Shown here: positions 2,521-58,677 of the stretch, piece by piece
Position numbering within the stretch: the stretch's first letter is position 1
Layout: every line of letters begins with the position of its first letter
IMG/VR virus record: IMGVR_UViG_3300046010_015054
Span: 106,106-170,105 of that record
DNA length: 64,000 nt
Direction: 5' to 3' (one strand)
DNA from: a virus
Program-made: the position numbers and the translations under genes
The notes under the pieces: generated by a model
What the model saw: the letters and a program-made list of their open reading frames with translations, nothing else
Databases searched by the model: none
What the model was told of the DNA's origin: nothing

Positions 2521-2809
2521 CTGTTATGGTTCCAGCTGTACCTTCTACTTCTAAAGTATTTGTACCACTATTAAACCAAACTTGTCCTGGGATTGGTGAA
2601 GAAGGAGAGGATCCTACAACAGGTAATACAAAAGTAGCATTATTAGCAATGGCTAAACTGCCACTATCAATAGTAGCAATGTTAACAGAACCACTTTTGA
2701 TTGTTAATTGACCCGCTGATGCAAAATCAAATTTAATTTCTTTACCTACAGCAGTATCTTGGAAATTTAAGCTACCTGATTTTGGTATTATCTGTACGTT
2801 TTTTGCCAT
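1..2809 (-). CDS. Collagen-like (Gly-Pro-X) fibre protein, 3' end runs off the window; missing from the ORF track
   Basis: ATG at 2809 reads [23 protein letters not shown]...GTITGGG, then [12 protein letters not shown] triplets with no stop to position 1. Preceded by an ATATTTAT motif. Confidence 0.9.
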
Positions 2810-2824
2810 CTTTTATATATACTA

Positions 2825-2832
2825 ATAAATAT
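2825..2832 (-). promoter_or_regulatory. ATATTTAT putative late promoter
   Basis: Recurrent intergenic octamer; upstream of the collagen gene. Confidence 0.65.
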
Positions 2833-55683: not shown

Positions 55684-56816
55684 CCGTTAACAACTTTAAA
55701 ATTATATTCCATATCTTGTACTATAGTTGAACCACTAATAGTATATTGAAGTAATATAGTGTAATATCTTTCAGGTTGCAAGCCGTTCATATAAAGGAAG
55801 AAATAGCTTGATTCTTGGTCTGCGCTTAATTTTGTGTAATCTGGATCAAACGGAATTACGTATTCATTTGTATCTAAATCTTTGATAGCATATAAAGATG
55901 ATCCTGATGGTAAATAGAAATTTTGTGTGTAAAGTGAAGCTGTTTGGAATACAATTTCAGGATACTTAGGTCTACAATCCACTCTAAAACGTTGTATACT
56001 GCTAGAATAGAAGGTACCAGCATTGTTGGCGATTGATGCATAGACGTTGTCTGTAGGAACTATAATCTTATTAGAACCGGATATATTCCATGTGCTATCA
56101 TCCCACTTAAATTCTAATACTGGTGGGTAGATAGTATGTGTATCTACTGAGTAGTATTGAAGTACAGGTTGTACTGCTTTTGCAGAATTAAATTCAATAG
56201 AATCTTCCCATTTTACAAGGAAACCTTGGTTAACAAAATTTGAACTACTATACCATACACTTACTATATCTTTAACACCAACATTTAAGTCTTTATCACT
56301 ATGGTAAGTAAATGTTTGAGTTACAGGTAATTGAATTCCATTTGCAGATCCAGTATACCAAACTGCACCACCAGGGTTGCTAGTTTGCCAAGAGCCTGTT
56401 GTATAAGGTTGAAGACCACCTATGCTTGTAGGCCATAAAAGACCATTTGCGTAGTTTTGCCATCTCCAAGAAACACCATCTGTAGAAATAGGCTGATCTA
56501 AATATTTTCCTGTACCCATACCCCAGGATCCTGAAGCTGGGTATATTTCTAGAGTATAATCTAGATTGATGCTTTGAGCAGTAGCTATAAATAATTGAAA
56601 ATTCGCAGTCCAATCTGCGTTACCTACTAAATCATCTAAAACTGAGGTAATTTGGTCTTGGTTGAATTTTACTAAAAGTCTAGCTACTTGAGCACTACTA
56701 CTAAGAGCAAAATTAAGGTTTGTAGCATCTAAAATCTCATCTAATCCCGTATTCATGTTAGGGAATAGGGAATAAATCGTAGCGTCTTTTTCGGGGAAAA
56801 TTTTATATACTGCCAT
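55680..56816 (-). CDS. Virion structural protein (beta-sandwich, DNRLRE-like)
   Basis: KDATIYS....NTG.DEIL, W..G.G, NQGF, YS.DTHTIYPP.L...WDD. Confidence 0.55.
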   Translation of the reverse strand: MAVYKIFPEKDATIYSLFPNMNTGLDEILDATNLNFALSSSAQVARLLVKFNQDQITSVLDDLVGNADWTANFQLFIATAQSINLDYTLEIYPASGSWGMGTGKYLDQPISTDGVSWRWQNYANGLLWPTSIGGLQPYTTGSWQTSNPGGAVWYTGSANGIQLPVTQTFTYHSDKDLNVGVKDIVSVWYSSSNFVNQGFLVKWEDSIEFNSAKAVQPVLQYYSVDTHTIYPPVLEFKWDDSTWNISGSNKIIVPTDNVYASIANNAGTFYSSSIQRFRVDCRPKYPEIVFQTASLYTQNFYLPSGSSLYAIKDLDTNEYVIPFDPDYTKLSADQESSYFFLYMNGLQPERYYTILLQYTISGSTIVQDMEYNFKVVNG

Positions 56817-56817
56817 T

Positions 56818-58677
56818 TTATAATGTTACAATTCTTCCTTTAATATCAGTTGTTGGGTATTTTACTTCAAAAATCATTGGATCTAATGAAGGATATATAA
56901 CACCATTTACAGTAGCTCCATTTATGTCGTATGCGTATTGAGAATATCCGTTAGAAGTACCTACTTTATTAGATATAATTATATCTTTAATAGATTGAAC
57001 TCCAGGAACATTACTAATTAATACATAAAGATCACTTAAAATAATAGGTTGATTTATCTGCCAGTTTCTAATAGCAAATCTCTCAATTAAAGCATTTATA
57101 CATGCTAAAATAACATCATTTGAGTTGTAATTAGGTAACACAAGTATTTCAAAATCAACTCCTATGTTGATAATAAATGCGTCTTTAATGTTTACAGAAT
57201 CTCCAATAATTCTGTATTGTGCTAAATAAGTAGATAAATTTTGTTTTAAAGCATCACTAGCTACAGTTAAAGTACCATCGTTATTACTTGTTAAAACATA
57301 CAAGTCTAAAGTAGATGGTATTTCTCCTGGGAGAATGTTTTGTAGTTTAGTTTTTTCAATAAATGCTTTAGAAATACTACCATAAATGCTAGGTAAAGAT
57401 AAAGCTCTAACTAAATAATCTTCAGGAGTTACCGCTCTTAATTGAGTAGAGAAGTTTGCAAGTGTATTTTGTCTAATTTCTTCAATACTATCTCCATCTT
57501 GACCACCTGAAGCTGCTCTTGGATTATTTACAGCAACACTATTAAAGATAATATTTGCTTGAGATGCTGCTGAGCTAGGTAGATTGTTTAAGAATTGAAC
57601 ATTTGAAGTATTTAAAACAGTTAATACTCCTGAAGGGACATTGGCTATAACTCCACCTCCTGTTAAGTATCTAACAGTTAAAGTTGTATTAGAAGGAGCC
57701 AAACCATATGTGTTATTAAACATAAAGTTTGTAGGAGAGTATGCTGTTGTTAATTTACTTTGTTCAAATGGTAAACCTAAACCTACGTTATCAGGGTTAG
57801 GAACTATAACTTCAGTAATTTCGTTTGCAGTGCCAGCACCAAATTGTAATTCAAGAGATCCAGTATTAATAAAACGAGTACTAAATCTTCTAGGAACCTT
57901 TTTTAATCTTAGTAGATAAGGTACTTGAGCATTATTAGCACTAAAGTTAGGGTCATTTTGTGGAGTGTTTTGAATAGTATCAAAAATAGCATCTTCTGCT
58001 AAAGCAGGTACTTCATACCACTCGTTACCATCACTATCAAATATATCTAAAATTCCAATAAGTTGTTCGTCATTAATAACAACTGTTGCAAATTCTTGTG
58101 GAGTGCCAAAAGAGAATGTAGTTGTATTAATTGTAGCTGAAATTCCTCTTGCTGTTTTCTTTAAAAGATAGTATGAAGGTTGAGTACCTGTGTATGTAAA
58201 TACACTAATTTCTGTTGGATTATTTGAACTTGATACTGAAAAATCTACTTTGTCTTGAACTAAAAAGCTAATATTACTATCATTATTAGCTGAGACAACT
58301 GAATTTTGCTCAACAACTAAAGTGTAAGACCAATCTGGGTTTCCTGTAACAGAATTGGCTGGGAGTTGTTGATAAAAATCTATATCACAAGTAGCTACAC
58401 CCGTAACATTAGGTTTATATCCTAACATATAAGCTAAATTAAATAAATTAGCTGGTTCTCTTGTATATTGAAGATAAGTTTCTTGGATTTGATTATCTAA
58501 ATAGAAAGAAATTACATCACCTACATAAGCTGCCATTTCCATAAACATCATTCCTGGTGATGCTTCTGTAAAGTCGTTGTAGGTGGTTGGGAAATAAGTT
58601 TTGCTGTAATTAATTAAAGCTTGTCTTATCTGCCCAAAATCTTTGTTTATATATTGTATGTTTCTATTAGTTGCCAT
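56818..58677 (-). CDS. gp6: Baseplate wedge subunit, T4 gp6-like
   Basis: DF..IR..L, YNDF.E.SPG, AY.GD..SFY.D.Q, FG.G, Y..GGG, ASGG.D.DS.EEIR, RAVT.EDY. Confidence 0.85.
   Translation of the reverse strand: MATNRNIQYINKDFGQIRQALINYSKTYFPTTYNDFTEASPGMMFMEMAAYVGDVISFYLDNQIQETYLQYTREPANLFNLAYMLGYKPNVTGVATCDIDFYQQLPANSVTGNPDWSYTLVVEQNSVVSANNDSNISFLVQDKVDFSVSSSNNPTEISVFTYTGTQPSYYLLKKTARGISATINTTTFSFGTPQEFATVVINDEQLIGILDIFDSDGNEWYEVPALAEDAIFDTIQNTPQNDPNFSANNAQVPYLLRLKKVPRRFSTRFINTGSLELQFGAGTANEITEVIVPNPDNVGLGLPFEQSKLTTAYSPTNFMFNNTYGLAPSNTTLTVRYLTGGGVIANVPSGVLTVLNTSNVQFLNNLPSSAASQANIIFNSVAVNNPRAASGGQDGDSIEEIRQNTLANFSTQLRAVTPEDYLVRALSLPSIYGSISKAFIEKTKLQNILPGEIPSTLDLYVLTSNNDGTLTVASDALKQNLSTYLAQYRIIGDSVNIKDAFIINIGVDFEILVLPNYNSNDVILACINALIERFAIRNWQINQPIILSDLYVLISNVPGVQSIKDIIISNKVGTSNGYSQYAYDINGATVNGVIYPSLDPMIFEVKYPTTDIKGRIVTL

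Follow-up and report, generated by a model that had tools for sequence, protein, structure and literature searches.

A recurrent [S/T]-G-S tripeptide in the outer virion proteins of a distant T4-like phage lineage, a candidate sequon for phage-directed O-glycosylation

The stretch analysed here, 64,000 nucleotides of the IMG/VR virus record IMGVR_UViG_3300046010_015054 (positions 106,106 to 170,105; hereafter the window), is the final 64 kb of one 170,105-bp phage contig, and its minus strand carries every gene of the window. The phage is an aquatic member of a distant T4-like lineage. Its gp23-like major capsid protein (MCP) showed 54% identity to that of the Flavobacterium phage immuto, 49.5% to that of the Microcystis phage Mel-JY01, 45% to that of the uncultured 484-kb phage LR756508 and 35% to that of the Rhodothermus phage RM378. 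A previous inspection of the letters and open reading frames (ORFs) of the window (the sequence-only reading) had noted that the tripeptide [S/T]-G-S ([ST]GS) recurs in unrelated, outward-facing structural proteins, and had proposed it as a recognition sequon for a phage-encoded system of virion modification. The proteins that carry the tripeptide and the glycosylation genes of the same genome are collected in Table 1.

The 60 ORFs were translated and [ST]GS was counted in each protein against the expectation from its composition. Every one of the earlier by-eye counts was reproduced exactly. The main enriched proteins contained 3-14 occurrences (0.4-2.5 expected), a single one was found in the zeta-like kinase, and there were none in the translated portal, terminase, primase, exonuclease and scaffold. 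When all tripeptides were ranked against within-protein shuffles in nine non-repeat virion proteins (4697 aa), SGS came first (27 observed, 3.5 expected; z 13) and TGS second (19 observed, 3.2 expected; z 8.7), and shuffles confined to 20-aa stretches left both ranks unchanged (SGS 27 vs. 4.7, TGS 19 vs. 3.6). The same scan gave no comparable tripeptide signal in 11679 aa of non-structural proteins, and in the rest of the genome an [ST]GS excess appeared only in the tail sheath and in the heads of two collagen-like fibres. The 46 sites lay in 30 different 9-mers and their codon use was varied and matched the background, which indicated that the constraint acts on the protein and not on the DNA; a DNA-level word or spill-over from the repeats is ruled out by these same observations. 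The enrichment of [ST]GS in virion proteins is real, and stronger than the sequence-only reading had stated: it survived controls for composition, local composition and residue order.

Table 1. Motif-bearing proteins of the window and glycosylation genes elsewhere in the genome (genome positions lie outside the window; numbers after "vs." are expectations from composition)
Feature	Frame	Coordinates	Strand	Content
Gly-Pro-X collagen-like fibre, 1066 aa, N-terminal part	window	2..2809	-	3 SGS in ~50-residue non-collagen head; gene extends beyond the window start (genome 105714-108914)
Proline-free collagen-like fibre, 2642 aa	window	2832..10760	-	Gly-[S/T]-[S/T] arrays; 7 isolated [ST]GS in 335 non-repeat residues
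Neck / head-tail adaptor (gp13-like), 406 aa	window	12402..13622	-	6 [ST]GS vs. 0.43; PHROG 211 head-tail adaptor Ad2
271-aa protein	window	16131..16946	-	Short Gly-[S/T]-[S/T] array and one isolated SGS; Pfam Collagen E 5e-7
MCP (gp23-like)	window	17269..19008	-	3 [ST]GS at residues 142, 183, 239; PHROG 138 1e-67
Gly-[S/T]-[S/T] collagen-like repeat protein, 449 aa	window	46094..47443	-	Pfam Collagen PF01391 E 1e-33
p351, fibre-like, 351 aa	window	47479..48534	-	9 [ST]GS vs. 1.09
p347, paralogous fibre/baseplate protein, 347 aa	window	48538..49581	-	5 [ST]GS vs. 0.67
Conserved baseplate-module protein, 219 aa	window	49589..50248	-	1 site, unenriched; 77% identity to immuto gp107
Distal baseplate/fibre protein, 1679 aa	window	50292..55331	-	14 [ST]GS vs. 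2.46
Baseplate-module protein, 119 aa	window	55324..55683	-	1 site
bp378, peripheral baseplate protein, 378 aa	window	55680..56816	-	Two CBM-like jelly rolls; 6 [ST]GS vs. 0.41
Inner baseplate wedge subunit (gp6-like), 619 aa	window	56818..58677	-	1 site vs. 0.46; PHROG baseplate wedge matches
Glycosylation region	genome	25-52 kb		Sulfotransferase, HldE-domain-I-like kinase, GT2, two GT1/GT4, FkbM methyltransferase, PglD-like acetyltransferase, DegT aminotransferases, RuBisCO-like protein, HAD-nucleotidyltransferase
Conserved glycosyltransferase module	genome	35279-39066		GT1 of 478 aa, GT1 of 426 aa, 149-aa protein, GT2 of 208 aa
Glycosylation region between sheath and fibre genes	genome	95.5-102.3 kb		760-aa GT4 fusion, two DUF7796, 2OG-Fe(II) oxygenase, 795-aa GT4-GT25
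GT4 fused to TibC/Aah-type O-heptosyltransferase, 760 aa	genome	95505-97787		TIGR04414

The motif was defined on 24.7 kaa (thousand amino acids) of virion-module proteins pooled from three phages. SGS (5.4x), TGS (4.3x), SAS (2.4x), TAS (2.2x) and DGS (2.1x) were enriched, and SGT (1.55x), TGT (1.3x), SGA (1.1x), AGS (0.96x), GGS (0.77x) and NGS (0.74x) weakly or not at all; in the same pool GSG and SSS were mildly enriched and the first-order Markov expectation was exceeded 2 to 2.5-fold. The motif is [S/T]-[G>A]-S, with strictly Ser at position 3. An anagram test, which needs no composition model, was applied to 80 related viromic loci, where SGS occurred 799 times vs. 235 for GSS and 173 for SSG, and TGS 555 times vs. 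105-253 for each of its five anagrams; the T4 anagram counts showed no asymmetry. The residue preceding the motif was hydrophobic in 52% of 1152 distinct contexts, with Tyr and Ile favoured; Trp, Ala and Tyr were favoured directly after it, and Lys, Glu and Met were depleted around it. Dipeptides typical of turns were flat in the pool (NG 0.95x, GN 0.99x, GT 1.09x; GD likewise unenriched).

Virion proteins were sorted by their known place in the T4-type particle into outer (sheath, neck, MCP, distal baseplate and fibres) and inner ones (portal, scaffold, protease, tube, tape measure, hub and inner wedge). The outer proteins contained 49 sites vs. 6.7 expected in the present phage (7.3x; inner 0.47x, non-virion 0.54x), 90 vs. 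23.4 in immuto (3.9x; inner 1.25x, non-virion 0.65x) and 65 vs. 10.4 in Mel-JY01 (6.3x; inner 1.3x, non-virion 0.91x), and the 619-aa wedge subunit marks the inner boundary of the enriched set. In the sheath, 14 of the 15 sites counted over the three phages fall within N-terminal insertion domains, outside the conserved C-terminal core, the exception being one site of Mel-JY01; in the MCP they fall in the variable central region, with SAS variants close by. Orthologs of the 1679-aa protein were enriched in immuto (gp109, 5 vs. 1.3), Mel-JY01 (11 vs. 1.4) and a complete viromic genome, G001 (28 vs. 4.6); that of LR756508 had 2 sites vs. 0.9 expected.

The best structural view came from bp378, whose AlphaFold model had a mean confidence (pLDDT) of 85.9 and a fold matching chondroitin- and alginate-binding carbohydrate-binding modules (CBMs). 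Each of its six sites is situated in a loop or where a strand ends. In the 42-member bp378 family the motif occupies 25 alignment columns, all outside the interiors of strands and helices and about half of them starting no more than two residues after a strand; two of the 25 are well conserved (36/42 and 34/42). The model of p351 was poor (pLDDT 49.7), and its better-resolved half places the sites at hairpin turns, such as T288-G289 between strands 282-287 and 290-295 in this low-confidence model. The sites on the models, chiefly that of bp378, were thus found in loops and turns and not in strand or helix interiors, as the sequence-only reading had expected. Its description of the carriers as outward-facing needs a qualifier, since they are presumed to be so from protein identity (sheath insertions, distal baseplate, fibres, neck and MCP) and from the secondary-structure assignment (DSSP) on the one good AlphaFold model.

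The unbiased scan was likewise applied to whole proteomes or pooled loci of other phages. SGS and TGS ranked 1 and 6 in the proteome of immuto, 5 and 11 in that of Mel-JY01 and 6 and 3 in that of RM378. In 259 kaa from the 80 viromic loci they ranked 1 and 2, the median enrichment of a locus being 4.8x, and a second, more diverse viromic set (78 loci) gave a median of 4.2x over 52 well-sampled loci; the complete viromic genomes G001 and G006 were clearly enriched. Besides the present phage, the motif is found in immuto, Mel-JY01, RM378 and two complete viromic relatives, as well as in about 155 partial ones; in all, the lineage yielded at least 549 viromic relatives, and a query of viral contigs with the bp378 ortholog of LR756508 alone returned three short contigs. 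Six phages outside the lineage (T4, P2, Tetrasphaera phage TJE1, the crAss-like Cellulophaga phage phi14:2, the 168-kb Flavobacterium phage MaF61 and the cyanomyovirus S-TIM5) gave ratios near 1, no enriched protein and symmetric anagrams. The signal does not match ordinary beta-rich phage proteins, and a generic trait of beta-rich phage tails is ruled out by these controls. The enriched phages span Flavobacterium, Microcystis and Rhodothermus hosts and unenriched controls share host groups with them (Flavobacterium, cyanobacteria), so that the trait belongs to the phage lineage and not to the host; a host-determined motif is ruled out on the same grounds.

Ortholog alignments of the present phage, immuto and Mel-JY01 had approximately 30% of the site columns in common, and the remainder were private. 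At private sites the other phages often read SSS, TAS, TSS or unrelated residues, yet the excess was kept in each genome, which indicated that the density of the motif is maintained while its positions change. Two sites of p347 are the only ones kept across every lineage member, LR756508 included.

The sequence-only reading had presumed a phage-encoded enzyme, and the rest of the genome encodes an extensive set of glycosylation enzymes, among them a protein O-glycosyltransferase of the TibC/Aah family that scored above the curated cut-off. The distribution of the isolated motif was best matched by the conserved module of two GT1 glycosyltransferases (GT478 and GT426, after their lengths), a 149-aa protein and a GT2 enzyme of 208 aa (GT2-208). 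The three enzymes accompany the enrichment in the present phage, Mel-JY01 and G001, each of which also has a TibC-like enzyme, with Gly-[S/T]-[S/T] arrays in the first two and none in G001, and in immuto, which has neither the TibC-like enzyme nor the arrays; G006 has GT426, GT2-208 and a likely GT478. The enriched RM378 has GT478 (26%) and two remote GT2-208 homologs, with GT426 undetected and both the TibC-like enzyme and the arrays absent. Among unenriched genomes, LR756508 (7 vs. 3.5) has GT478 (30-32%), and GT426, GT2-208 (none at E<5) and the TibC-like enzyme are absent; LR756511 has none of the four. LR756501, a megaphage outside the lineage, is unenriched as well: GT478, GT426 and GT2-208 were not found in it (blastp, 1e-5), and it has a TibC-like enzyme and Gly-[S/T]-[S/T] arrays. 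GT2-208 was thus present in all six complete enriched genomes (in RM378 as remote homologs only) and GT426 in five of the six, and both were missing from the two non-enriched lineage relatives, LR756508 and LR756511. Partial contigs of 58-86 kb are uninformative on the absence of these genes.

LR756508 was the informative relative with a different enzyme set. It has orthologs of the entire motif-bearing module, with a sheath 49% identical over the aligned 299 residues, yet of the 79 site columns only 2 still read [ST]GS in it, and 15 more keep Gly with other flanks. Mel-JY01, about equally diverged from the present phage, is fully enriched. Since LR756508 has the orthologs and almost no motif, these proteins can fold without it, and the presence of the motif appears to go with that of GT426 and GT2-208. 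GT478 homologs occur in all enriched cultured genomes; GT478 as a sufficient reader was weakened by LR756508, and TJE1, also unenriched, has only a distant homolog of it. NCBIfam and Protein Data Bank (PDB) sequence searches gave no specific name for GT2-208, its PDB matches to TAL effectors being a short spurious stretch. Glycosylation of DNA is unlikely to be the job of the module, because liquid chromatography-mass spectrometry of immuto DNA showed only dA, dC, dT and fdPreQ1 (bioRxiv 10.1101/2023.04.13.536721). Inside the sugar-nucleotide and glycosyltransferase island lies a RuBisCO large-subunit-like gene (genome 48431-49666; Pfam E 1e-30), adjoining the HAD-nucleotidyltransferase fusion and methyltransferases.

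The 760-aa GT4-TibC fusion, whose gene sits between the sheath gene and the collagen-like fibre genes, scored 206.1 bits against TIGR04414, the Aah/TibC model 'autotransporter strand-loop-strand O-heptosyltransferase' (curated cut-off 200; E 7.7e-61), with residues 423-755 covering model positions 28-372 of 374; homologs in Mel-JY01, LR756501 and LR756504 scored 320, 307 and 223 bits. In the alignment to TibC (4rb4, E 2e-30) T226, K230 and W305 are conserved, an Asp stands where the D110A crystal chain 4rb4 has Ala (D110 being the catalytic base of TibC), and all four iron-finger residues C339, C342, C358 and C370 (TibC numbering) align with Cys (CxxC ... WCP ... C). R286 of TibC aligns with Val, with a Lys one residue earlier. 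The alignment begins at residue 61; TibC needs its N-terminal beta-barrel (residues 1-97) for activity, and the phage protein has the GT4 domain upstream instead. ADP-heptose would probably be supplied by phage HldE-like enzymes, encoded by two separate genes, one resembling domain I (E 7e-36) and the other domain II (E 2e-27), each scoring under its equivalog cut-off.

As sole reader of the isolated motif the TibC-like enzyme was rejected: it is absent from immuto and RM378, and LR756501 has it with no isolated-motif excess. Because the isolated motif is equally enriched in relatives lacking the TibC-like gene, its reader, if it has one, must be a different enzyme. The fusion appears instead to be tied to proline-free collagen-like proteins. 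Gly-[S/T]-[S/T] arrays occur in the present phage, Mel-JY01 and LR756501 and in neither of the TibC-negative immuto and RM378, so that they accompany the enzyme in three of the four TibC-positive genomes (the exception is G001). By their PF01391 matches and Gly-X-Y register, uninterrupted for 622 triplets in the 2642-aa fibre, these proteins are collagen-like, and their proline-free repeats would presumably form a triple helix. The sequence-only reading had taken the GTS/GSS repeat proteins as dense acceptor scaffolds; their collagen-like character and the company of the TibC-like enzyme fit this view, in which their modification is still putative.

Outside the lineage the TibC-like domain was found in the megaphages LR756501 and LR756504. 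The first of them (735 kb) has a GT4-TibC fusion of identical architecture and a P4H-like oxygenase (45% identity), with array giants of up to 3487 aa and Gly-X-Y runs of up to 425 triplets in two regions (102894-124287 and 391944-422930), and no homologs of the capsid or baseplate module of the present phage. In Mel-JY01, a 508-aa 'structural protein' (L012:3065-4591) is a fibre with 13 [ST]GS and recurrent ISSS units, lying between a Gly-[S/T]-[S/T] protein and a 1227-aa GT4-FkbM-TibC fusion. The whole proteome of G001 (complete, 164 kb) has very strong PEV/EVP/PDV tripeptide repeats (135 observed vs. 19 expected), which suggests that repeat proteins of another type replace the Gly-[S/T]-[S/T] fibres there. 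Directly upstream of the two Gly-Pro-X fibre genes of the present phage (genome 97789-102309) are genes for a P4H-like 2-oxoglutarate (2OG)-Fe(II) oxygenase (E 1e-13), for the GT4-GT25 protein of 795 aa and for the two DUF7796 proteins. Collagen galactosyltransferases belong to GT25, and these genes look like a phage cassette for collagen hydroxylation and glycosylation.

The most likely reading, which we hold with about even confidence, is that [ST]GS serves as a structural sequon at which the phage directs the O-glycosylation of its virion surface. The acceptor would be [S/T]-[G>A]-S where a loop begins, or on the tip of a hairpin, after a beta-strand, and phage-encoded enzymes acting in the cytoplasm of the infected cell would give the particle a sugar coat on its outside; a second enzyme, the GT4-TibC fusion, would most likely decorate the proline-free Gly-[S/T]-[S/T] fibres encoded beside it. 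The motif, its specificity, placement, lineage distribution and turnover, the identity of the enzymes and their co-distribution with it are observed and partly support the sequence-only reading; the modification, the enzyme, the sugar and the accepting hydroxyl are what we infer from them. In literature searches neither the motif nor glycosylated virions were found described for this lineage.

Several observations weigh against the sequon. The TibC-like domain was missing, by profile search, from the equally enriched immuto and RM378, and LR756501 combines no isolated-motif excess with Gly-Thr-Ser arrays in strict Gly-X-Y register in 11 proteins. In RM378 the GT2 homologs are remote (E 8e-7 and 2e-3) and a GT426 counterpart was undetected by sequence, GT478 is present in LR756508 without enrichment and is not sufficient alone, and no single enzyme explains all cases. 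The enzyme link comes from about eight related genomes and maybe one or two evolutionary events, and LR756508 is the most diverged member, with outer proteins poorer in Ser, Gly and Thr. No significant avoidance of the motif was seen in cytoplasmic or non-virion phage proteins (0.54x-0.91x; T4 overall 0.74x). In the 508-aa fibre of Mel-JY01 the motif forms part of a regular, building-block-like module (SGS..KFGDT..DDTH.F-TGS-x-x-x-SGS), and the Gly centre, the hydrophobic flanks and the hairpin placement would equally be expected of a plain turn motif. A broader proposal, to which we give somewhat less than even confidence, is that the lineage, a very abundant group of aquatic T4-like phages whose relatives infect Bacteroidota and cyanobacteria, coats the whole outside of its virion with O-linked sugars, its own cytoplasmic GT2/GT4 enzymes reading [S/T]-G-S hairpin tips and the TibC-type enzyme acting on the proline-free collagen-like fibres. 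Jointly with it, and just as tentatively, such a glycan coat may be a general one among phages and have a predictable site code, evolving through gain and loss of sequons as in the envelope glycoproteins of animal viruses.

The main rival, which we regard as rather unlikely, is purely structural: [S/T]-G-S would be the preferred tight turn, hairpin tip or fibre repeat unit of the lineage, its side-chain hydroxyls capping the turn and its Gly left-handed, with nothing attached. Sites at strand ends and in two- or three-residue hairpin loops fit this explanation, as do the hydrophobic residues at position -1 in half of the contexts, the aromatics favoured on both sides, the mild rise of DGS, the regular TGS/SGS module of the Mel-JY01 fibre and the two p347 sites kept even in LR756508. 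A turn preference, however, would not account for the flat counts of NG, GN, GT, GD and NGS, all classic turn formers, nor for the strict preference of position 3 for Ser over Thr, Asn and Asp. The motif is missing from six unrelated phages whose tails are just as beta-rich, LR756508 builds the orthologs without it, often keeping the Gly with other flanks (15/79 columns), buried beta-rich virion proteins are unenriched, and the sites turn over fast.

An improbable alternative is that the loops are unmodified and rich in hydroxyls, binding polysaccharide of the host or environment or tuning the hydration and stickiness of the particle surface. It would suit the restriction of the motif to outward-facing proteins, the CBM-like jelly rolls of bp378 and the rapid turnover, and leaves unexplained the strict order (SGS over GSS and SSG), the use of one tripeptide on capsid, neck, sheath and baseplate, and the association with GT426 and GT2. 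It is quite improbable that the motif accepts another phage modification, such as a phosphodiester decoration (e.g., glycerol phosphate), phosphorylation or sulfation. Candidate enzymes exist, namely a cytidylyltransferase that also matches glycerol-3-phosphate cytidylyltransferase (E 1e-19), the sulfotransferase and the zeta-toxin-like kinase (window 43070-43873), but these genes are not common to all enriched phages, and those that are shared are glycosyltransferases.

A sequon of a host glycosylation system is very improbable. Bacteroidota do have general O-glycosylation; their sequon, D-[S/T]-[A/I/L/M/T/V], is however different and acts in the periplasm, and the distribution over hosts, with the motif in phages of Flavobacterium, Microcystis and Rhodothermus and not in other Flavobacterium, Cellulophaga and cyanobacterial phages, has largely refuted this explanation. 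There is a negligible chance that the motif is an artefact of composition or low complexity in proteins rich in Ser, Gly and Thr. Outer proteins do have a somewhat higher content of these residues, and GSG and SSS are mildly enriched, but the artefact is rejected by global and 20-aa shuffles, by the anagram test and by the first-order Markov expectation.

Other features of the genome were recorded alongside. The first 1257 bases of the contig match its final 1257 bases (window 62744-64000) at 97.5% identity, and the 261-aa ORFs of the two segments differ at five residues; the matching ends are either an imperfect direct terminal repeat or a two-variant assembly across a circularly permuted end. 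Window 13665-16019, which separates the capsid gene from the neck gene, encodes PhoH (E 2e-63), a phosphatidylserine-decarboxylase-like protein (E 7e-22) and a 304-aa protein without a match in Pfam, a trio that G001 keeps at 69-78% identity. Outside the window (genome 54148-56094 and 60312-67289) are GroEL and GroES homologs (57% and 41% identity to the immuto counterparts) and a complete 7-deazaguanine gene set (FolE, QueC, QueD, QueE and DpdA-like). Because this set is present and immuto DNA was shown to have fdPreQ1 in place of dG, the DNA of the present phage is probably modified in much the same way.

To our knowledge, phage-encoded virion glycosylation is known from very few systems, and no acceptor code has been defined for any phage. 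Should [S/T]-G-S prove to be one, the sites of glycosylation would be predictable from sequence across the lineage, including its cultured Flavobacterium, Microcystis and Rhodothermus phages, with a bearing on particle stability, adsorption, resistance to proteases and grazers, and the evolution of host-range proteins. The TibC/Aah family would then gain protein substrates and a phage context, and the collagen-like proteins a glycosylated proline-free member. As immuto, Mel-JY01 and RM378 are in culture, the idea is directly testable.

Among the closest known systems is that of the bacterial autotransporter heptosyltransferases (BAHT; TibC/TibA and Aah/AIDA-I of E. coli; TIGR04414; PDB 4rap/4rb4), in which a cytoplasmic enzyme O-glycosylates many Ser (or Thr) residues on a beta-rich surface protein. 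The phage encodes a protein that passes the cut-off of this family and retains its catalytic Asp and iron-finger Cys, as well as HldE-like ADP-heptose enzymes. It differs in that its enzyme is fused to GT4, its candidate acceptors share a sharp tripeptide signature unreported for Aah or TibC, and its candidate targets are virion proteins of many folds, in contrast to the single autotransporter beta-helix of BAHT. Mycobacteriophages decorate their own virion proteins by phage-encoded glycosyltransferases, with glycans reported at the C-termini of capsid and tail-tube subunits (Freeman et al. 2023, Cell Host Microbe, as cited in PMC12619734). By comparison, the candidate sites of the present phage are in internal loops of sheath, neck, capsid, distal baseplate and fibres, and none is in the tube.

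Among solved structures, GT478 comes closest to the chlorovirus glycosyltransferase B736L (3oy2, E 3e-10), the similarity being limited to the GT-B core. Chloroviruses glycosylate their capsid at non-canonical sites by a virus-encoded cytoplasmic machinery; they differ in being eukaryotic viruses and in having N-linked glycans on the major capsid protein. For the Gly-[S/T]-[S/T] fibres, the best analogy would be BclA of the Bacillus exosporium, whose collagen-like Gly-X-Thr repeats are dense O-glycan scaffolds on a surface filament; the phage repeats differ from it in being proline-free, with Ser/Thr at both X and Y, and in having as neighbour a TibC-like enzyme and not the Bacillus enzymes.

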